Assembly: GCA_964640635.1 (NCBI GenBank)
Contig: CAZXFD010000004.1
Location: forward strand, 9,262 to 73,261
Direction: 5' to 3'
DNA: 64,000 nt
From: an uncultured Gammaproteobacteria bacterium
GTDB taxonomy: Bacteria > Patescibacteriota > Patescibacteriia > UBA1558 > S5-K13
The translations under genes and the position numbers were made by a program. The notes below the pieces were generated by a model, which was not told the DNA's origin, searched no databases, and saw nothing but the letters and a program-made list of their open reading frames with translations. Position 1 is the first letter of the stretch; every line of letters starts with the position of its first letter. Below are positions 1,473-52,387 of this stretch, piece by piece.

Positions 1473-2059
1473 TTTATTGGATTTTAAAATATACTATAGG
1501 CACATTAATTAAATTTATTTGGATTAAAAGAGTTGATGGAGTTGAAAATATACCAAAGAAGGGCGCGTTTATAATTTGTGCAAATCATTCTAGTTATTTT
1601 GATTTTCTTACCCTGATAGCAGTTTGTCCAAGAAGAATCTATTTTTTAGCGGGAGAGGTGTTTTTTGAAAAATGGCAATGGAAATGGTTGGTTCAATCTA
1701 CAAAACAAATAAAGGTAGATAGAAGATCTAAAGATAAATCTGGATCTATTAATGCGGTAATAAAATATTTAGAACAGGGTTTAGTTGTTGGTATTTTTCC
1801 TGAGGGAACTAGATCTAGGGACGGGGAAATAGGAAAATTTTATGATGGAGCGGCAAGAATAGCTAAAATTGTGGATGTGCCGATTTTACCGGTTGGTATT
1901 ATTGGTTCTTTCGAAATAATGTCTAGATACGATAAATATCCTAAATTTAATAAAAAATGTATTTTAAATTTTGGGCAATTAATTATTACTAATTCCGATT
2001 TAAAGCCCTCAATTAATGAGCTTTTGATTACAAATATAAAATTATTAAACAAAGTATAA
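1469..2059 (+). CDS. plsC: 1-acyl-sn-glycerol-3-phosphate acyltransferase (PlsC family).
   Basis: It has the H(X)4D acyltransferase motif (ANHSSYFD) and the FPEGTRS motif. Its start overlaps the stop of the acyl-CoA ligase gene by 4 nt, which suggests translational coupling in a lipid operon. Confidence 0.75.
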   Translation: MIYWILKYTIGTLIKFIWIKRVDGVENIPKKGAFIICANHSSYFDFLTLIAVCPRRIYFLAGEVFFEKWQWKWLVQSTKQIKVDRRSKDKSGSINAVIKYLEQGLVVGIFPEGTRSRDGEIGKFYDGAARIAKIVDVPILPVGIIGSFEIMSRYDKYPKFNKKCILNFGQLIITNSDLKPSINELLITNIKLLNKV

Positions 2060-2071
2060 TATAGAACCCCA

Positions 2072-2728
2072 ATGAATTATTTAGTTTTTTTGGATTTAGA
2101 TGATACTTTAATTAGAGGTCAATCCCAGATATTATTGATGAATTATTTATTTCAAAAAAAGAAAGTTAGTGTTTATTTTTATTTAGTCGTTTTGAGTTGG
2201 TTTTTTCTTTATAAAATGAGAATTGTTAGAGATGTTCAAAAAATTAGCAATATATTTTTTAATATTTGTAATGGTTGGAATGTAGAATATATGAATGGAA
2301 TATTGCAAGATTTTTTTGAAACATGTTTACGAAGCAGGATACGAGAAGATTTTTTAGAAATAATAAAATTTCATAAATCATCTGGAGGTAAAATTATACT
2401 ATTAACAGCATCTATTGATCCATTAGCTAAAATTATAAAAAACTATTTAAAATTAGATTTCTGTATTGCTACTCAATTAGATTGTAAAGATAATATTTAC
2501 TCTGGTAAACTAAGAGACAAAATAATTTATGGAATTCAAAAAAGAATAAGTATATTGAGTTATGTAAATAATAACAAATCTCTTTTAAAGGGTAGTTTTG
2601 CATATACCGACCATATTTCTGATTTTATTTTTCTTAATTTAATAGATAATGTATTTATAGTTAATCCAAAAAAGTATTTTAAAAAAATCATTAAATATAA
2701 CAATTGGAATAAAATTTTTATGAATTAA
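2072..2728 (+). CDS. HAD-superfamily hydrolase (HAD-IB, phosphoserine-phosphatase-like).
   Basis: The N-terminal DxDxT motif is present (LVFLDLDDTLI), and the size fits this family. Confidence 0.6.
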   Translation: MNYLVFLDLDDTLIRGQSQILLMNYLFQKKKVSVYFYLVVLSWFFLYKMRIVRDVQKISNIFFNICNGWNVEYMNGILQDFFETCLRSRIREDFLEIIKFHKSSGGKIILLTASIDPLAKIIKNYLKLDFCIATQLDCKDNIYSGKLRDKIIYGIQKRISILSYVNNNKSLLKGSFAYTDHISDFIFLNLIDNVFIVNPKKYFKKIIKYNNWNKIFMN

Positions 2729-2732
2729 AACT

Positions 2733-5489
2733 ATGTCTTTTTTTGGTCTTTCATCATTGTTAACCTCCATACTGTCTATTCTGATAGGATTTTTTGTGAT
2801 ATTAAGAAATAAAAAATCATTATTAAATGTAGCATGGTTTCTTGTTAGTATTACAACGGCTTTATGGTCTTTTGGGTTATTTGGGGTTGTTACTTTTCAA
2901 AATATTAAGATAGCTTTATTTTTTCAATATATTTTAGATTCTAGTGCGATATTTATTCCAATTTTCTTTTTTTTGTTCGTTTTGATTTTATTGGATATTT
3001 TTAGAGGCAAAAATAAAACAATATTTAATAGTTTTTTATTTTTTGGAATTATTTTATTAATATTAAGTTTTACAGATTTATTTAAAGGTGGCGTTTCTCC
3101 TAAATTTGGTTTTAAGCACTGGATTGATCCTGGTCCAATCTATATAATTTTTCCAATCTTTTTCGGCGTATTGGTTTCAATGTCTGTTTTGAATATTTTA
3201 AAAAGATATAAACAATTAAATGGTGCAAAAAAACAACAAGCTCTATATGTTTTATTAACTGCTATAATAGGTTTTGGGGGGGGTGTTACAAATTTCTTTC
3301 CTCAATTACTCAATACGTATCCATTCGGTTCTTTTTTTACAATGTTTTATATTCTTGGTATTGGTTATGCCATAGCTCGTTATCGTCTTATGGATATTCG
3401 TCTTGTTATTTCAAAAAGTATATTGTATTTTGCTTTGATTGGATTAGTTACCCTAGCTTTTACATCAATAACATTTATCACAGGCCAAGTGTTTACGGGG
3501 GAGGGGGTTTCAAATACTTTAGTCACTTTGTTTATTTCTTTGATTATAGTTTTTGGATTTGATCCCCTTAAACGTCTTCTTGCACGACTTACCGATAAAG
3601 TTTTTTATAAAGACAAGATAGACTATCAAGAAGTCCTTAGGACTCTTGGGCTTATTATTGCTAGAGAAATTGAATTAAAGAAATTGTTTTTGGATATGTC
3701 CGAGTCTCTGGAGAAATTTCTAAAATGCAAAAGCGTCAATTTTTTATACAAAAATAAGACAACAGGAATATTTCGTGCTATTGTAGATGAAAAAATTGCA
3801 ATCGCTTCAAACGATGAAATTATTAATTATATATTTACAAATAGAGAAATAATAATTACGGAAGAGCTGGATAGAAAAAGCAAGGAATTGAGTGATGAAG
3901 AAAAAACAAAAATTGCAAAAATAGTCGAAAGATTAGATAAGATGAAAATAGGCCTTATCGCTCCTATTATCTCTGGCAATGAAATAACGGCAATACTAAC
4001 TATCGATAAAAAATTATCAGGAGATACTTTTTCAGGAGAAGATATAAATCTTATTTCAGTTCTTATTCCTCAGATAGCAACAGCCCTTGAGAAATCACGT
4101 CTTTATAATGAAATTCAAACATTTAATATAAATTTACAAGCAAAAATAGAACAGGCTACAAAAGAATTAAAGCAGGTAAATATTGATTTAGAAATAAGAA
4201 ATAAATATCTTACATCACTGCAAAAAATTAGTAGCACTATAACGCGAAGTTTGAATTTTGAAGAAGTGGTATCTTTTATTGCTACAAGTATAAAAAAAGA
4301 AATGGGTTTTTGTGCTGGAGTTGTAAATTTCGTAGATGATAAGTCGAGGGTAATGTATATAGGCGCAATGACGCAAGATGACGGAATAGATAAAATTATT
4401 TCTTCTTTACCAAAAAAACCACGTGAATATAGAGTCTCATATGACGATAGCGATAATATTGCCATACGTGCAATGCAAACTTCAAATTTAGAAAAAAGTA
4501 ATTTTGTATATGATGTTTTTAAACCAGCCATAACAAAAACTCAGGCAGATCAGTTGCAAAATGCACTCAAAATAAAATCAGTCGTTGTCGTGCCAATGTA
4601 TAGTGAGAATAAAATAATTGGGTCTATTGATTTCTTTTTGTGTGTAGAGAGTGAGAAAATTAAACAAGCAGATATGGAAGTCATGAAGGCTCTCACGGAT
4701 CAAACTGGATTAGTAATAAAAAATCTTCATCTGTATTCAGAAATTTCTTCCAAAAATATAGAACTAGAAAGTGCAAATGAGAATTTAAAACAATTGGATC
4801 AAGCAAAATCAGAATTTTTATCCATTGCCTCACATCAACTTAGAACACCACTTACAGGAATAAAGGGATATTTATCAATGCTTGTAGAGGGAGATTATGG
4901 AAAAATACCAAAGAAAATAGAAGATATTATAAAACAAGTTTTTGAAGCAAGTAATAGAATGGCAAGACTTGTTGATGTATTTTTGAACGTTTCAAGGATA
5001 GAGGCGGGGAAATTAAAACTAGAATTAAATGGGTTTGATCTTGGCGAACTTGTTTTGAGGTCTGTCAAAGATTTGGAAATTACTGCAAATGAACGAGGAC
5101 TTAAGCTTTCTTTTGAAAAAATGGATAACGTTTATATTGTAAAAGCAGATTCCGATAAAATAAAAGATGTTTTACTAAACCTAATAGATAATGCAATAAA
5201 ATATACAAAAAAAGGTAGTATTAATGTAAAGCTATCCAAAAAAGATTCGCAGGCACTTGTTGAAGTAAGTGATACAGGAGTTGGCCTCGCAGAGGAAGAT
5301 ATTGATAAATTATTTAATAAATTTTCAAGAGGAGAGGATAGCTCAAAAATAAATACCGGTGGATCTGGACTTGGCCTTTATGTAGCAAAAAAAGTTATTG
5401 ATGCACACGGTGGAAAAATTTGGGTTGAAAGTCTTGGAAAAGAAAAGGGTAGTAAATTTAGCTTTACCTTACCACTTAGTGATGTTTAA
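2733..5489 (+). CDS. Sensor histidine kinase with a multipass membrane sensor region (about 7 TM helices), GAF-like linker domains, HisKA and HATPase_c.
   Basis: The N-terminal roughly 260 aa are highly hydrophobic. The H-box is SHQLRTPLT, the N-box is DNAIKYT, and the G-boxes are DTGVGL and GGSGLGL. Confidence 0.85.
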   Translation: MSFFGLSSLLTSILSILIGFFVILRNKKSLLNVAWFLVSITTALWSFGLFGVVTFQNIKIALFFQYILDSSAIFIPIFFFLFVLILLDIFRGKNKTIFNSFLFFGIILLILSFTDLFKGGVSPKFGFKHWIDPGPIYIIFPIFFGVLVSMSVLNILKRYKQLNGAKKQQALYVLLTAIIGFGGGVTNFFPQLLNTYPFGSFFTMFYILGIGYAIARYRLMDIRLVISKSILYFALIGLVTLAFTSITFITGQVFTGEGVSNTLVTLFISLIIVFGFDPLKRLLARLTDKVFYKDKIDYQEVLRTLGLIIAREIELKKLFLDMSESLEKFLKCKSVNFLYKNKTTGIFRAIVDEKIAIASNDEIINYIFTNREIIITEELDRKSKELSDEEKTKIAKIVERLDKMKIGLIAPIISGNEITAILTIDKKLSGDTFSGEDINLISVLIPQIATALEKSRLYNEIQTFNINLQAKIEQATKELKQVNIDLEIRNKYLTSLQKISSTITRSLNFEEVVSFIATSIKKEMGFCAGVVNFVDDKSRVMYIGAMTQDDGIDKIISSLPKKPREYRVSYDDSDNIAIRAMQTSNLEKSNFVYDVFKPAITKTQADQLQNALKIKSVVVVPMYSENKIIGSIDFFLCVESEKIKQADMEVMKALTDQTGLVIKNLHLYSEISSKNIELESANENLKQLDQAKSEFLSIASHQLRTPLTGIKGYLSMLVEGDYGKIPKKIEDIIKQVFEASNRMARLVDVFLNVSRIEAGKLKLELNGFDLGELVLRSVKDLEITANERGLKLSFEKMDNVYIVKADSDKIKDVLLNLIDNAIKYTKKGSINVKLSKKDSQALVEVSDTGVGLAEEDIDKLFNKFSRGEDSSKINTGGSGLGLYVAKKVIDAHGGKIWVESLGKEKGSKFSFTLPLSDV

Positions 5490-47131: not shown

Positions 47132-48214
47132 TTATTTCAACTTGCACTTTAATACGCTTTCTATAAAATCTAATATATCCCCATTTAATACCCTTTCGCT
47201 GTCACTTGTCTCATAATCACTTCGTAAGTCTTTTATCATTTTGTATGGATGAAGGACATAAGATCTTATTTGATTTCCCCATGCGGCTTCTTTGATTTCC
47301 CCTTTTATTTTTTTTCTTTCTTCGTCTGATTGTACTTGTAGGTATTTACTTATTTTTGCATATAAATATTTCATTGCTGTTTCTTTGTTTTGGCCTTGAG
47401 ATCTTTGATTTTGGCACGTTGTAACAATTCCTGTTGGGATATGAGTAATTCGAACTGCTGAGTCTGTTGTGTTTACATGCTGTCCACCTGCACCACTAGC
47501 TCTATAGAAATCAATTCTTAGGTCATCATTTTTTATTTCAATAGGAATTTCATCTATTTCTGGAAAAACTTCTACCATTGCAAAAGAAGTGTGTCTTGCA
47601 TGATCGCTGTCAAATGGAGAGAGTCTTACAAGGCGATGTACGCCGTCTTCGCTATGGAGATATCCATAGGAATAAGAGCCTGTTATTATCATTGTAATGG
47701 TTTTGTATCCTGCTTCTTCTCCACGAGATTCGTCTATTATTTGATATTGCCAGTTCATTTTTTCAAAAAATCTTGTGTACATTCTGAAAAGCATTTCTAC
47801 CCAATCTTGAGATTCCGTACCCCCTGCTCCTGCAAAAATTGTCATAATTGCGTTGTTGGGGTCATATTTATTGGTAAATAATATTATTATTTCAAGATTC
47901 TTGAACTTTTTTTCGAGCTCATAATATTTATCAGTAATTTCTTTTTCTAATTCTGAGGCATTATCGGTTTCAATAAGATCTGATAAATCATCTAATTCTT
48001 TTATTAAATTTTCCCAATTTGTAATCTGGTCTTTGTAAGTTTTTAGTTCTTGAGATTTGTTTTTTGCAATATTTTGATCTTTCCAGAAATCAGAATTATT
48101 CATGTCGGATTCAAGTGTATTCACTTTGGTTTTTAATTCATCTAAATTTAAAAGTGGCAAGATATTATTTATTTTATTTTGTAGTTCTTTGATTTTTTCT
48201 ACAACTTCGTTCAT
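47132..48214 (-). CDS. prfB: Peptide chain release factor 2, encoded as one uninterrupted ORF with no programmed +1 frameshift.
   Basis: The SPF tripeptide (RLSPFDS) and the GGQ motif (SGAGGQHVNTT) are present. Codons 20-30 (ILPLLNLDELK) contain no in-frame TGA. Confidence 0.9.
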   Translation of the reverse strand: MNEVVEKIKELQNKINNILPLLNLDELKTKVNTLESDMNNSDFWKDQNIAKNKSQELKTYKDQITNWENLIKELDDLSDLIETDNASELEKEITDKYYELEKKFKNLEIIILFTNKYDPNNAIMTIFAGAGGTESQDWVEMLFRMYTRFFEKMNWQYQIIDESRGEEAGYKTITMIITGSYSYGYLHSEDGVHRLVRLSPFDSDHARHTSFAMVEVFPEIDEIPIEIKNDDLRIDFYRASGAGGQHVNTTDSAVRITHIPTGIVTTCQNQRSQGQNKETAMKYLYAKISKYLQVQSDEERKKIKGEIKEAAWGNQIRSYVLHPYKMIKDLRSDYETSDSERVLNGDILDFIESVLKCKLK

Positions 48215-48284
48215 TTGATTTTTTTATTTTTAGGACTATGATTAAATTAAGAGTATAAAATTAATTTATCATAAAGGAGGCCAT

Positions 48285-48314
48285 ATGGCAACAAGAGCAG
48301 TTTATTCGCTCTAA
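48285..48314 (+). CDS. Nine-codon upstream ORF (MATRAVYSL) with its own SD; its TAA stop lies inside the SD of the following gene.
   Basis: AAAGGAGGccatATG...CTC TAA AGGAGGaaaag ATG, read directly from the sequence. Confidence 0.4.
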   Translation: MATRAVYSL

Positions 48315-48325
48315 AGGAGGAAAAG

Positions 48326-48511
48326 ATGAGAAACAAAGGTGATTCTCGTCGCGACCAAAAAAAGAACAAAAGGAAAAAAGTGCAACAAGATGTCTTTGGA
48401 CATAGCTCCAATGGGGCAAAGACCAAAGACGACATTTCTAAGAAAAAGAAACAAAAACACAAACACGACAAAAGAAGTGATAAGAAATATCACATAGGAG
48501 GCAGTAAGTGA
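48326..48511 (+). CDS. 61-aa hyper-basic, highly charged small protein (about 40% K/R plus D/H; KKKKQKHKHDKRSDKKYH tail) of unknown function.
   Basis: It has a perfect SD AAAGGAGG 6 nt upstream, is locally GC-richer than its surroundings, and is followed by a canonical terminator at 48537-48574. It is a lone plus-strand unit between two minus-strand operons. Confidence 0.55.
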   Translation: MRNKGDSRRDQKKNKRKKVQQDVFGHSSNGAKTKDDISKKKKQKHKHDKRSDKKYHIGGSK

Positions 48512-48536
48512 GAAAAATTAATTCTCAAAACTAAAA

Positions 48537-48574
48537 AGGGTTTGCTATATATAATAAGGCAAACCCTCTTTTTA
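48537..48574 (+). terminator. Rho-independent terminator of the small basic-protein unit.
   Basis: agggtttgc tatatataataag gcaaaccct followed by cttttta ttt. Confidence 0.7.
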
Positions 48575-48731
48575 TTTATACTAATTTATAATACTAATAT
48601 ACTAATTATGCTAATTATATTAATCTCTCTTTATTTATAATTTACTATTTGATTATTTTCAAATGATTTTTTATTTTGATATTTTAAGTTCTATTAATCA
48701 ATTATTCTATTATCCTATTATACTATTAATA

Positions 48732-50435
48732 TCATCCGTGTTTTATAGAGCATTTTGACTTGTCACTATATGTTGTATGAAGAAGTTTGTGAGAGAGTTT
48801 GTTAGATGGAGAGCCAAGAAATTCTTTATATAATTTTTGTATTTGCGGATTATTATGTGATTGTCTAAATTTTAGAGATTTTTCGTGTTTATATATAGCA
48901 GAGATTCTTTTTTTGATTGTCTCACTTGTAGTTGTTTTTGGTTGTCCTCCTCCACCAATGCATCCAGATGGACATGCCATTATTTCAATAAAATCGTATT
49001 TATTTTTATTTATTTTGAGTTCCTCTAATACTGTTCGAGCATTTTTTAGGGTATGGATTATTCCTAGATGTAGAACTGTATTTCCTATTTTTACTTTTGT
49101 TGATTTTATGCCACTACTACCTCTAGCCTCAACAAATTCTATGTTTTTTAGCTCCTTGTTTGTAAGCAAGAAGTGCGCAGTTCTAATAGCAGACTCCATT
49201 ACTCCTCCACTTGCAGCAAATATAGCACCAGCACCAGTTGATTCTCCTAGTGGATTGTCGAATTTTTCGTCTTTTAGGTTTGCAAAATCAATTTTAAAAT
49301 TTGTAATTAATTTTGCACACTCTCTTATTGTTAAGACATAGTCAACATCTTTATTGTTGTTTACCCCCATTTCTTTTCTACAGGACTCATATTTTTTTGC
49401 AGTGCAGGGCATAATGCTTACGACAACTATATTTTTTGGGTCAATTCCCTTTGTTTTGGTAAAGTAACTTTTTATAATAGCTCCAAGCATTTGATGTGGA
49501 GATTTGCAAGTGGAAACGTTTTTTAGAAATTCTGGATAAAATGTTTCTACAAAATTTACCCAACCAGGACAACACGATGTAATAAGTGGAAGATTCTTTT
49601 TCCTCTTTAATCTCTCAACAAGCTCTGTTGCTTCTTCCATTATTGTAAGATCTGCACCAAAATCAGTATCAAAAACTTTTTTAAAACCAATTTTACGAAG
49701 TGCTCCCACCATTTTTCCTGTCACAATAGTTCCCGCTGGAAGACCAAATTCTTCGCCAAGAGAAACTCTTACGCTAGGCGCTGTTTGAACAACGACGTAT
49801 TTTGACTTATCTTTTAATATTTTTTTTATATCTTCTATGTTTTCTTTTTCTCTTATTGCATTTGTTGGGCAGACGAGTGTACATTGTCCACAACCCACAC
49901 AATCTGTGTATGCTAGTTTTTTATCTAATGCTTTTCCTACCCTTGTTGCATTTGCACGTTTGCTATAACTGATTGCATTTACTGTTTGAAGATTTCGACA
50001 TTTTTGTATACACCTTCCGCATTGTATACATTTTTCAAAATCCATTACTATATCATGACAAGAATTGTCTATTTCTTCACTTTTTCTTGGTTTGAATTTG
50101 AGTTCTTTGACATCTGGTAAGTCCTCTAATTTTAGCCATTTTTTGAATTCCTCTTCTTTTTCAAAATTACATCCAATAAGCTGAATTATAGATTTTCTGT
50201 ATTCCAAAATTTCTTTTGATGTTGTTACTATATTCATGCCATCTTTTATCTTATTGTTGCAACTTGTTGTGAATTTTCCATTGGCTAAAACAGCGCAAAT
50301 CCCACATCTTCCTTCTGGTATAAGATCTGGATGATAACAAAGGGTTGGAATTTTTATTCCGGATAATTTACAAGCCTCAAGAATTGTGAGCTCTTCTTTG
50401 ATATTGTATGTTTTGTTGTCTATAGTTATTTTCAT
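48732..50435 (-). CDS. [FeFe]-hydrogenase catalytic subunit HydA (N-terminal 2Fe-2S ferredoxin, 4Fe-4S clusters, H-cluster domain).
   Basis: H-cluster motif L1 is TSCCPGWV, L2 is MPCTAKKYE and L3 is EIMACPSGCIGGGGQP. The N-terminus has CYHPDL..EGRCGICAV (2Fe-2S) plus CIQCGRCIQKC and CVGCGQCTLVCP. Confidence 0.85.
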   Translation of the reverse strand: MKITIDNKTYNIKEELTILEACKLSGIKIPTLCYHPDLIPEGRCGICAVLANGKFTTSCNNKIKDGMNIVTTSKEILEYRKSIIQLIGCNFEKEEEFKKWLKLEDLPDVKELKFKPRKSEEIDNSCHDIVMDFEKCIQCGRCIQKCRNLQTVNAISYSKRANATRVGKALDKKLAYTDCVGCGQCTLVCPTNAIREKENIEDIKKILKDKSKYVVVQTAPSVRVSLGEEFGLPAGTIVTGKMVGALRKIGFKKVFDTDFGADLTIMEEATELVERLKRKKNLPLITSCCPGWVNFVETFYPEFLKNVSTCKSPHQMLGAIIKSYFTKTKGIDPKNIVVVSIMPCTAKKYESCRKEMGVNNNKDVDYVLTIRECAKLITNFKIDFANLKDEKFDNPLGESTGAGAIFAASGGVMESAIRTAHFLLTNKELKNIEFVEARGSSGIKSTKVKIGNTVLHLGIIHTLKNARTVLEELKINKNKYDFIEIMACPSGCIGGGGQPKTTTSETIKKRISAIYKHEKSLKFRQSHNNPQIQKLYKEFLGSPSNKLSHKLLHTTYSDKSKCSIKHG

Positions 50436-50454
50436 GGGTTGGTGATTAGCGAGA

Positions 50455-51531
50455 TTAGGAAACTAGGTTATTAAATTCATTTTTAAAATATTTAAGCGCT
50501 GTTTGAAGGTGTAGTGTTGATGATTCACCTAGCGCACATTGTGAGCCATATGGAATGTGTAATGACAAATTTTTTATTATTTCAAACTCTTCTTTTTTCC
50601 ACTTTCTTTTTAAAATTACTTGAAATAATTGTAGTAATCTAAAATTTCCCTCTCGACATGGGATACATTTTCCACAATTTTCTTCATTGAAAAATTGTAT
50701 AATAGACCTACATATATCTGGAATGCTTTTTGATTTGTCTACTACTATTATTCCTGTTTCAAAAAATCCACCCATTTTACTTATATTTTCATAAGAAAGA
50801 GAAATATTTTTGTCTGTTTTAATACATCCACCAGATGCGCCAAAAAATATTGCTTTTGAATTATATGATTCCACAAGAGACAAAAGTTCAAATAATTTTA
50901 TTCCTTCTTTTAATTCATAAACCCCAGGTTTTTTTACATCTCCAGATATTGAAAATAGTAATAAATCTTTATCAAAATTATTAGAAAATATTAGAGGAAT
51001 CCTTGCTATTGTTTCTAGATTATTTACAACTGTCTTTTTTCCGAATAGCCCAAATTCAGATGGATATGGGGGTTTTTTTCTTGACTCGGGACGAATTCCT
51101 TCTAAGCTATTTAAAATTGCCGTTTCTTCTCCACAAATATAGCTTCCAGCACCTACTATGACAGAAATATTTAATTTTGTTTTTTTGATAATCTTTTCAA
51201 GAGACTCTTTGTATTCTTTATATTCTTCTCGAAGATAAATATATGTAATTTTTGCGCTAGTTGCACGCATTGCGATAGCGATTCCTTCGATAATAAGTTC
51301 TGGATTTTTTTCTAATATAAATTTGTCTTTGAATCTTCCTGGTTCGCTTTCATCGCTATTTATTATTAGGTATTGTGCGGGATATGAAAGTTCCCATTTT
51401 TTTCCAGTTGAAAAATTTGCACCTCCCCTACCTTTAAGACCAGAGTCAATAACTTTTTTTATTATATCTTTTGGTTTTAAATTTTGTGCTATTTTCCAGG
51501 AATTGAAATTGTTTTTTGTAAGTATTTGCAT
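50455..51531 (-). CDS. NuoF-like flavoprotein subunit of the hydrogenase (HydB/HndC-like; NADH-binding, FMN, 4Fe-4S).
   Basis: GLKGRGGANFSTGKKW, SDESEPG, YICGEETAILNSLEG and CGKCIPCREG are present. The protein is shorter than canonical HydB and lacks extra ferredoxin domains. Confidence 0.75.
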   Translation of the reverse strand: MQILTKNNFNSWKIAQNLKPKDIIKKVIDSGLKGRGGANFSTGKKWELSYPAQYLIINSDESEPGRFKDKFILEKNPELIIEGIAIAMRATSAKITYIYLREEYKEYKESLEKIIKKTKLNISVIVGAGSYICGEETAILNSLEGIRPESRKKPPYPSEFGLFGKKTVVNNLETIARIPLIFSNNFDKDLLLFSISGDVKKPGVYELKEGIKLFELLSLVESYNSKAIFFGASGGCIKTDKNISLSYENISKMGGFFETGIIVVDKSKSIPDICRSIIQFFNEENCGKCIPCREGNFRLLQLFQVILKRKWKKEEFEIIKNLSLHIPYGSQCALGESSTLHLQTALKYFKNEFNNLVS

Positions 51532-51944
51532 TATATTAAGCCTTCTATTTTTAATATATATTTTATTTTTTCCTCTGTAATATTTGTATAAACAGATTGG
51601 TTGATGCTCATAATAGGGCCTTTGTCACACATTCCAATACACTGACACGTTTCAAGTGAGACAAGACTGTTTGATTCCCCTATTTTTATATTCAATAGAT
51701 TGGAAATAAGATTAAGTAATTTTTCATTTTTTTTGGAGTGACATGTAGGGCTTTGACAGAGTTTGATAATTTTTTTTGAAGGTTTTTCTAAATTAAAATT
51801 TGCATAAAAAGAAACAGTGTCATAAATTTCTGCTGGGGATTTTTGAAATTCTTTTGCAAGCATATTTATGTCAGATTCTTTTATGTAAGAGGTTCTGTTT
51901 TGAATTTCTAGTAGTCTCTCTAGTAGTAATTTTTTATTTTCCAT
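51531..51944 (-). CDS. NuoE-like thioredoxin-fold [2Fe-2S] subunit of the hydrogenase (HydC/HndA-like).
   Basis: The Cys pattern is CQSPTCHS...CQCIGMCDKGP. The start overlaps the hydB stop. Confidence 0.7.
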   Translation of the reverse strand: MENKKLLLERLLEIQNRTSYIKESDINMLAKEFQKSPAEIYDTVSFYANFNLEKPSKKIIKLCQSPTCHSKKNEKLLNLISNLLNIKIGESNSLVSLETCQCIGMCDKGPIMSINQSVYTNITEEKIKYILKIEGLI

Positions 51945-52066: not shown

Positions 52067-52387
52067 TTAACAGTGTCCTATAAAGCACATTTTGTATGCT
52101 TTTGGAGTACTTATTTTGATTGTTTTTCCCATTACAATAGATGGATCATCGTAATTCTCAATAAATGCAGAGATATTATTTCCAAGATCTTGATCTAGCA
52201 ATGTGTTAGAGTCAATTTTTACAGATATGGCAAGTCCTAGTCTTTGAATAGAAATCTTCTCGGGTAGAATCTGTAAGGTTGTTGTTAGATGTTCTTTGAG
52301 TTTTTGAACTAACATTTTAAAAAATTCATTTTCGTCATCTTGATTGGGTATGCATTTTGTTGGGAAGTTGATTTTTATATCTGCCAT
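52067..52387 (-). CDS. Hypothetical 106-aa protein ending in CFIGHC.
   Basis: It has good coding signal and its own terminator, and sits next to the hydrogenase operon. No motif was recognised. Confidence 0.4.
   Translation of the reverse strand: MADIKINFPTKCIPNQDDENEFFKMLVQKLKEHLTTTLQILPEKISIQRLGLAISVKIDSNTLLDQDLGNNISAFIENYDDPSIVMGKTIKISTPKAYKMCFIGHC

Follow-up and report, generated by a model that had tools for sequence, protein, structure and literature searches.

A leader mini-ORF before a prfB-linked small gene in one clade of Patescibacteria: a candidate recent replacement of a Shine–Dalgarno-hiding helix

When the stop codon of a short upstream open reading frame (uORF) lies inside the Shine–Dalgarno (SD) sequence of the following gene, is the arrangement a conserved translational regulator or a recent local addition? 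The question is raised by a small gene on the plus strand of a 64,000 nt stretch of contig CAZXFD010000004.1, referred to here as the window, in which a 9-codon uORF precedes an ORF for a 61-aa Lys/Arg/His-rich protein, between prfB, the gene for release factor 2 (RF2), and the FeFe-hydrogenase genes hydABC. An initial annotation had described two SD sequences, the 9-codon ORF, the 61-aa ORF and a terminator as a self-contained unit with a layout classic for uORF-mediated control. All of these elements were located on the plus strand, with coordinates 1–2 nt from those first given, by direct reading of 47900–48900; the interval of the unit is 48215–48577. On balance, and with moderate confidence, the uORF is interpreted here as a recently evolved ribosome-loading or coupling device that would have replaced an SD-hiding arm of the leader, on an autonomous unit linked to prfB.

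The leader in the window and in related lineages

The two SD sequences are copies of AAAGGAGG. The first (SD1, 48273–48280) lies 4 nt before the ATG of the uORF, 45 nt upstream of the main ATG and, given the putative promoter described below, about 25 nt from the 5′ end of the transcript. The uORF (48285–48314; ATG GCA ACA AGA GCA GTT TAT TCG CTC TAA) encodes MATRAVYSL, and its TAA stop codon (48312–48314) overlaps the second copy (SD2, 48313–48320), the ribosome-binding site of the 61-aa coding sequence (CDS), which was taken from the ORF listing (48326–48511, stop TGA). The spacer between SD2 and the main ATG measures 5 nt, not the 6 nt first reported, and 11 nt separate the uORF stop from the main AUG. 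Pairing with the 16S tail is predicted at −11.7 kcal/mol for each copy, tied as the strongest in the window. When both strands of the 64 kb window were scanned, no other copies of AAAGGAGG were found. Two copies are expected by chance in 128 kb; the occurrence of both on the same strand, 40 nt apart and each 4–5 nt before an ATG, makes their placement more than chance would give.

Strong SDs are a minority in this genome. Across 56 non-overlapping ORFs of the window, mean SD pairing was −0.24 kcal/mol compared with −1.20 kcal/mol in a mock upstream window, and 11 % of the ORFs reached −4 kcal/mol. The SD signal is not above the mock, which indicates that most window genes have no SD. The strongest other sites are at 52387(−), 20689(−), 56252(−) and 1469(+). 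Three other SD-led genes of the window (106, 152 and 314 aa, none with a Pfam match) have the form GGAGGAATA(C)ATG, 20–30 nt behind TTGACA-type promoters, and their spacing (GGAGG-AATA-ATG) is the same 4 nt as that between SD1 and the uORF AUG. Relatives likewise contain a minority of strong SDs (five genes).

For comparison, RF2 loci (given below as L numbers) were fetched from species-representative genomes, and closer RF2 protein look-ups added L094, L097 and L100. Homologues of the small gene are present in about 12 lineages of one Patescibacteria clade. SD1 and a uORF of the same length occur in only four sequences, namely the window, L001 (RF2 93 % identical), L002 (~88 %) and L100 (90 %), and both are absent from L097 (RF2 88 %), L094 (77 %), L086, L003, L005, L089, L092 and L085, as from every lineage with RF2 identity of about 65 %. 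The overlap of uORF stop and SD, for which conservation in related genomes had been put forward as a check, is thus kept in the four close carriers and missing from every other lineage.

A hairpin directly 5′ of the main SD is common to all lineages, with a stem sequence that varies. In the window this 5′ untranslated region hairpin (AGAGC/GCUCU; 48294–48298 and 48308–48312, plus strand) has a 9 nt loop, lies wholly inside the uORF and ends 1 nt before SD2. In a seven-sequence alignment, 95 % of cells were paired and three pairs had changed on both sides, compared with 21–45 % in slid controls. The stems by lineage are AGAGC/GCUCU, CCAAG/CUUGG, CUGAG/CUCAG, AUCGAG/CUCGAU and AGGCAU/AUGCCU, the last being an extra compensated stem from L094, with another from L097. 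The SD2 block that follows (AGGAGGAAAA) is invariant in 10 of 11 lineages. The hairpin loop of relatives (AAUCAAUG), which matches the reverse complement of CATTGATT, was also considered as pairing with or mimicking the prfB initiation region. This was rejected because the match fails in L086 and in the window, both being changed without compensation, and it is treated as a coincidence in AT-rich sequence.

What differs between the carriers and the other lineages is the arm upstream of this hairpin. Relatives carry a U-rich tract at the same 11 positions; L097, for example, has GTGTTTTTTCT where the window has GAGGCCATATG. RNAalifold, applied to the relatives, pairs UUUUU with the A-run between SD and AUG, and the minimum free energy (MFE) fold of seven of seven relatives contains a two-tier stem that joins the U-tract (+CU) to the spacer and to (A)GG in the SD. 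The spacer and AUG are predicted to be 0.02–0.24 unpaired in relatives vs 0.75 in the window, and SD2 0.15–0.81 vs 0.90. Relative to shuffled sequences, the leader fold has z-scores of −2.8 to −5.3 in five relatives vs −0.86 in the window. The inner hairpin of the ancestral leader is shown by covariation and the outer, SD-hiding helix is predicted by folding; as modelled, the ancestral leader looks like an SD-sequestering hairpin of the fourU kind. A covariance model of it was dropped, as MAFFT had placed the SD one column off.

In the window lineage, 11 nt of the U-rich arm would have been overwritten by GAGGCCAUAUG. Such a replacement would have removed the SD-hiding helix and so opened SD2, created a second perfect SD with the genome's usual 4 nt spacing to an AUG, and created a 9-codon ORF that runs across the retained hairpin and ends inside the main SD. 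Folding and a terminator scan of the window leader found no alternative structure, leader terminator or occluded SD. Further downstream, the MFE fold of 48326–48360 pairs the main start region GAUGAGAA with codons 8–10 UUCUCGUC, and in the window clade this predicted start-region hairpin may make the main AUG partly inaccessible.

Among the four carriers, 3 of the 111 leader sites vary; for prfB the figure is 13 of 35 four-fold sites, and for the small CDS it is 36 of 183 sites. The 4 nt spacer between SD1 and ATG (CCAT, CCGT, CTAT) accounts for two of these leader changes. The third, in L002, replaces a C-G hairpin pair with U-G, so that pairing is kept, and substitutes Val for Ala5 in the peptide. 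Within the clade, then, SD1, ATG, frame and stop are all frozen, and the stretch expected to be free under an SD–AUG model is the one that varies. From these patterns we read the uORF as a young, selectively maintained, lineage-specific addition and not as a feature of the family or a conserved regulator. The initial view of classic uORF-mediated control is not supported, since the uORF is absent outside this tight cluster, even in L097, and no toggling structure was found in the window.

The leader also carries promoter signals. In an alignment of the intergenic region between prfB and the small gene from 11 lineages, four conserved blocks were found besides the SD: TTGATT, TATGAT, AATTTATCA and GGCAA(C). 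A consensus scan gave a putative sigma-70-type promoter for the small gene on the plus strand (TTGATT 48215–48220, 16 nt, TATGAT 48237–48242), of which both hexamers are conserved in the 11 lineages; TTGATT, as the −35 hexamer, adjoins the prfB start codon, and TATGAT lies 16–17 bp away across lineages. Plus-strand transcription would start near 48249. On the minus strand, the scan gave a putative prfB promoter with an extended −10 element (TTGCCA 48291–48286, 17 nt, TG-n-TAAATT 48271–48263). The 17 bp spacing of the AATTTATCA and GGCAA(C) blocks is kept in 10 of the 11 lineages, with variable sequence between them. Transcription of prfB would start near 48256, giving an overlap of about 8 nt between the 5′ ends of the two transcripts. 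Consensus, conservation and fixed spacing together point to two oppositely oriented, overlapping promoters that share a region of about 111 bp. Promoters interlocked in this way would explain why the small gene and prfB never separate, and would place SD1 within the prfB promoter spacer and the uORF ATG in the prfB −35 element. Two other candidates in this region were rejected: the GCAAC block as an RNA motif, for which the prfB −35 hexamer fits better given the fixed 17 bp spacing, and a 10 bp palindrome GCCATATGGC as an operator, the symmetry of which is broken in L002 and L100.

The promoter places the start of the unit at 48215 in place of the 48271 proposed at first. With promoter, SD, ORF and terminator all found, the description of a self-contained expression unit stands, and 48215–48577 is an autonomous, probably highly expressed transcription unit. 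Its purine bias is as described (AT skew +0.51 in the unit vs −0.2 to −0.3 in the surroundings), whereas the reported GC enrichment applies to the comparison with adjacent intergenic sequence (0.32–0.37 vs 0.19–0.25) and not to that with the flanking genes.

Possible action of the leader ORF

If the uORF is a loading and coupling device, a 30S subunit would be captured at the 5′-proximal SD1, and the ribosome would translate the mini-ORF, melt the hairpin and terminate within reach of SD2. Termination near SD2 would favour re-initiation on the main ORF, and the 5′-proximal ribosome would also shield the 5′ end of the mRNA; the uORF peptide itself is probably irrelevant. Termination–reinitiation coupling has been reported to collapse at about 20 nt (PMC10666635), and the main AUG, 11 nt beyond the uORF stop, is therefore within coupling range.

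Several points weigh against this interpretation. The transcription starts and the translation of the uORF are deduced from sequence, as is the direction in which the uORF would affect the main ORF. A ribosome terminating at 48312–48314 would cover SD2 and the main AUG, and the uORF could repress the main ORF instead. The leader is near-invariant, and the conservation of SD1 is not cleanly separable from the constraint of two promoters on the DNA; moreover, the uORF carriers are only four closely related sequences. The outer helix of the ancestral leader shows no covariation, every pair being invariant, and the U-tract also lies within the promoter spacer, although its retention in the promoter spacer of about eight lineages can be argued to mean that the RNA needs it.

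The main alternative, which may equally be a co-function, is that SD1 is chiefly a stabiliser of the mRNA 5′ end, similar to STAB-SD elements, with a bound 30S or 70S blocking decay from that end and the mini-ORF incidental. STAB-SD elements act without a start codon, whereas here the AUG, the frame and the stop in SD2 are kept in four lineages and only the spacer between SD1 and AUG varies freely. This explanation is possible but is given clearly less weight than coupling. It gains from the nature and position of SD1, a perfect 8 nt SD some 25 nt from the putative 5′ end and 45 nt before the main AUG in a genome most of whose genes have no SD, and from the fact that the peptide is not conserved as such. 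Strong SDs or bound ribosomes near 5′ ends stabilise Firmicutes mRNAs (PMC5737220), and STAB-SD elements have been reviewed (PMC4113751).

It is improbable that SD1 and the uORF are a functionless by-product of turnover in the spacer and −35 element of the prfB promoter, their apparent conservation being due to promoter constraint or to the closeness of the carriers. SD1 does lie wholly within the 17 bp prfB spacer and the ATG overlaps the −35 element, the whole 111 nt region is near invariant in the clade, and relatives manage without a uORF. Promoter spacers are, however, normally free to vary, and the prfB spacer varies between clades, yet within the carrier clade 13 of the 17 nt are fixed. 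At the rate of the four-fold sites (37 % variable), the probability that the 11 nt of SD1 and ATG would remain unchanged is about 0.006. An 8-mer SD, a 4 nt spacing, an ATG, an open frame and a stop in SD2 would also have needed several coordinated changes, and the only two AAAGGAGG sequences of the 64 kb are both in this leader.

A sensing uORF or leader peptide of the classic type, in which stalling or termination on MATRAVYSL-UAA would gate SD2 in response to an amino acid, an antibiotic or the level of release factor, appears marginally less probable again. The stop embedded in the main SD, the hairpin inside the uORF, the neighbouring prfB and the near-invariance of the uORF in the clade are what such a device would lead one to expect. 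Against it, SD2 is predicted to be 0.90 unpaired in the window, where the leader fold has a z-score of −0.86 and contains neither an alternative partner for SD2 nor a leader terminator, and the small gene occurs without a uORF in all other lineages. The sole peptide change (Ala to Val) is non-synonymous yet keeps the RNA pair. UAA is read by both release factors, so the uORF stop would not single out RF2.

A structured non-coding RNA or riboswitch (e.g. preQ1-II) in place of an mRNA is already largely refuted: the sub-threshold Rfam match to preQ1-II (RF01054; 48238–48328, 24.6 bits, E=0.17) scores far below the gathering threshold of 47 bits, begins upstream of the putative transcription start, rests mostly on AAAGGAG..AUG and has no counterpart at E=1 in the leaders of relatives, the window leader is not significantly structured, the 61-aa frame is under purifying selection with protein motifs, and the downstream gene is unrelated to queuosine transport.

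The small gene, its 3′ end and its association with prfB

Two 61-aa homologues with 87 % and 82 % identity were found by a word-indexed search of 5.8 billion proteins, and across these and the window sequence the ratio of non-synonymous to synonymous substitution rates (dN/dS) is 0.17–0.32. The 61-aa ORF is a genuine gene under purifying selection. An exhaustive phmmer search of 1.84 billion representatives gave no match beyond its own cluster, and a profile search added four homologue clusters; the homologues now comprise P0001–P0006 and ORFs in L003, L005, L094, L097 and L100. They are 51–61 aa in length with the common motifs NKRK, FGHSSN, KQK and KSDKKYHxGG, and synonymous variation underlies most conserved residues of the family. 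Lys and Arg make up 38 % of the window protein (18 K and 5 R), slightly below the 40 % estimated initially. Searches of Pfam, NCBIfam, PHROGs and PDB sequences with single sequences and with the family alignment returned nothing significant, in agreement with the earlier impression that the product belongs to no known ribosomal or small basic protein family. AlphaFold2, run on a seven-sequence alignment, gave a predicted local distance difference test (pLDDT) score of 59.8 and a predicted template modelling (pTM) score of 0.15, with at most one N-terminal helix; the low pLDDT agrees with the suggested disordered character. The description that best fits the product is that of a polycationic and intrinsically disordered protein. 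From its composition, its strong translation signals and its neighbourhood, it most plausibly binds RNA or ribosomes.

The family is confined to part of the clade. At L003 and L005 (RF2 65 % identical) a 57–58-aa homologue lies at the same place, whereas the small gene is absent from L098 and L099 (RF2 67 % identical), where the gap between hydA and prfB is only 52 nt (L098 2449–2500, GCA_019248475.1; L099 2257–2308, GCA_019248435.1). This shows that the unit is an insertion/deletion polymorphism within the clade. None of 78 other RF2 loci contained the small gene, and together with its absence from L098 and L099 this makes the unit an accessory island of one Patescibacteria clade. The small-protein family is newly documented and unannotated, in a narrow clade of Patescibacteria. 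Where present, the small gene is divergent from prfB in all of the approximately 12 lineages, at a distance of 108–127 nt, and the linkage is kept where the genes beyond prfB or downstream of the small gene differ.

Domain searches agree with the initial assignment of the minus-strand flanks. The hydA/B/C genes occupy 48732–51944, and prfB (47132–48214) has PCRF and RF-1 domains and an SPF motif. The window prfB is one uninterrupted ORF and is thus without a programmed +1 frameshift site, the usual autoregulatory site of prfB. Several other Patescibacteria RF2 loci match only from residue 21–22 on, as expected with the frameshift present.

The 3′ end of the small gene contains a second set of translation signals. 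An SD-like GGAGGC (48497–48502, plus strand) lies inside the 61-aa CDS, and 6 nt after its GGAGG core a GTG (48508–48510) overlaps the TGA stop (48509–48511). The hexamer is nucleotide-invariant in 12 of 12 lineages. In 11 of 11 lineages its two Gly are encoded by GGA GGC, compared with GGA in five, GGT in five and GGC in one for the conserved Gly of FGH. In L094 the hexamer is in another frame (AAG GAG GCA TAA); there (2214–2393), and in the identical L095, a 1 nt difference before GGAGGC gives an end in ...YDKEA and a TAA stop, on which two independent assemblies agree. A GTG or TTG stands 6 nt after the GGAGG core in all lineages, L094 included, and overlaps TGA in 11 (GTGA/TTGA). TGA is a minority stop, used by 3 of 52 window genes and 6 of 39 genes in relatives, yet the small ORF ends at TGA in 11 of 12 lineages, with L094 as the exception. 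The GTG opens a possible coupled mini-ORF of eight codons (GTG..TAA, 48508–48534, plus strand), of uncertain status, with its stop 3 nt before the terminator stem. An equivalent ORF of 7–9 codons running to a TAA before the terminator is found in 10 of 12 lineages, and in L086 and L089 the frame enters the terminator. From its sequence, the 3′ feature resembles a second junction for coupling or, alternatively, a device that would hold ribosomes at an RF2-only stop. A prfB-like +1 frameshift at the UGA is unlikely and was rejected: AAG, CAU and GCG, the final sense codons, would not slip to +1, and the extensions are short and unconserved.

The unit ends in an intrinsic-terminator-type hairpin with an A-tract and a T-tract, readable on both strands (48533–48577). 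The stem, GGGTTTGC (48538–48545) and GCAAACCC (48559–48566), begins 26 nt after the TGA and is followed by TCTTTTTATTT (−15.4 kcal/mol); with its 8 bp stem followed by UCUUUUUAUUU, the hairpin has the features of an intrinsic terminator. Its 13 nt loop exceeds the usual length, and for this reason a simple terminator scan missed the hairpin. All relatives retain the terminator; in L089 one of its pairs is compensated (GAG/CUC), and in L094 it is shortened symmetrically. The claim that it closes the unit holds in that it is present and travels with the small gene in relatives with other neighbours, but it is bidirectional and also faces the hydA end.

Could the small gene be a module that senses RF2 or termination, in place of the absent prfB frameshift? 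Ribosome dwell or fate at the UGA would report RF2 activity, and/or the protein would act with RF2 on the ribosome. The frameshift-less prfB, the interlocked promoters, a UGA stop in UAA-dominated genomes, the invariant GGAGGC and the GUG/UUG restart are the sequence features on which this idea is based, and we regard it as quite unlikely. The link with prfB may be no more than a structural consequence of the promoters that the two genes share.

Other observations concern individual loci. Between the terminator and the end of hydA, a 151 nt AT-rich spacer (48581–48731) is 98 % identical to that of L097. It was rejected as a repeat or mobile element, no further copies being found. The flanking prfB and hydA are 87–88 % identical between the window and L097, and the small CDS and leader only 74–78 %, and the pattern of identities suggests that the surroundings of the small gene evolved as a mosaic or recombined. 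The L097 protein is nearer to the L086 type (KSHxKYDKGG) than to the window type. In L085 (~2975–3010) the small ORF is apparently frameshifted near its N-terminus, with MGENRS in one frame and the called 51-aa ORF in another, and the leader hairpin is degraded; this copy may be a pseudogene or an assembly error. In L005/L084 and L097 the main frame is open upstream through the leader, giving ORFs of 80 aa and 75 aa from an ATG or GTG near the putative transcription start. The 75-aa version was reported by one gene caller, and these extended ORFs are probably an annotation artefact. L094 has a 140-aa co-directional gene (~1669–2091, minus strand) 3′ of the small-gene terminator and a TTGACA promoter, with the strong SD TAGGAGGAAATTATG, and small co-directional genes are also found downstream of the small gene in L089 and L092.

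Comparison with known systems

Attenuators of the ermC or trpL type share with the window leader a short ORF with its own ribosome-binding site. Mutually exclusive structures were not found, as the window leader has only a 5 bp hairpin that excludes SD2, and the uORF is not conserved wherever the small gene occurs. The two ends of the small gene are similar to termination–reinitiation junctions. Upstream, 11 nt lie between the uORF stop and the following start, with SD2 across the stop; downstream, GTG overlaps the main stop (GTGA, an overlap of the −4 type) and is preceded by an SD at 6 nt (PMC6728339, PMC10666635). They differ in that the partners are mini-ORFs of 8–9 codons and not subunits of a complex, that coupling is here proposed from sequence features, and that the upstream junction is limited to one small clade. 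STAB-SD of Bacillus thuringiensis cryIIIA and the 5′ protection of B. subtilis hbs resemble the leader in having a perfect SD far upstream of the main start (PMC4113751, PMC5737220) on a short, probably abundant mRNA, but SD1 has its own clade-conserved AUG and ORF.

The relatives' leaders are, by prediction, similar to fourU RNA thermometers, with 5–8 U (+CU) against (A)GG and the A-spacer, nearly all in A-U and G-U pairs (PMC3185406). Their helix differs in enclosing a second, covarying hairpin, and the window has lost the U-tract; at least four U paired to the SD, as in fourU elements, are predicted in relatives only and not in the window.

For the protein, one parallel is rpsU (bS21), which stands out by its SD in SD-poor Bacteroidia; as in Flavobacteriia, a small basic protein here has the strongest SD of the window in an SD-poor genome (PMC9976891). 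The parallel differs in that other genes also have strong SDs (three in the window, five in relatives), which weakens the notion of an rpsU-like single SD in the genome and gives no ground for supposing SD-blind ribosomes. No homology to bS21 (PF01165) was found in Pfam, NCBIfam or PDB, and the rpsU analogy is only a lead. A second parallel is with the rescue factors ArfA, BrfA and ArfT, which are likewise basic, lysine-rich proteins of about 60 aa, the link to RF2 being here one of position; in the small gene, however, the TGA lies upstream of the terminator and the mRNA is not non-stop (PMC6881298). At E up to 10, a Pfam search found nothing and the family profile recovered no PDB chain, those of ArfA and BrfA included.

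Judged from sequence, the regulatory parts of the unit resemble known kinds, namely leader mini-ORF junctions, 5′ SD stabilisers and SD-sequestering hairpins, and they serve a protein family without a known relative. In these organisms, whose ribosomes are reduced, that protein is a candidate for an abundant binder of RNA or ribosomes. Its leader may offer an evolutionary snapshot in which an SD-hiding helix was overwritten by a second SD and a mini-ORF, inside the promoter spacer of a neighbouring gene, and it illustrates that a textbook-looking uORF can be a recent lineage-specific addition and not a conserved regulator. At the other end of the gene, an invariant GGAGGC and a UGA stop beside a frameshift-less prfB suggest testable ideas on termination and the homeostasis of release factors.

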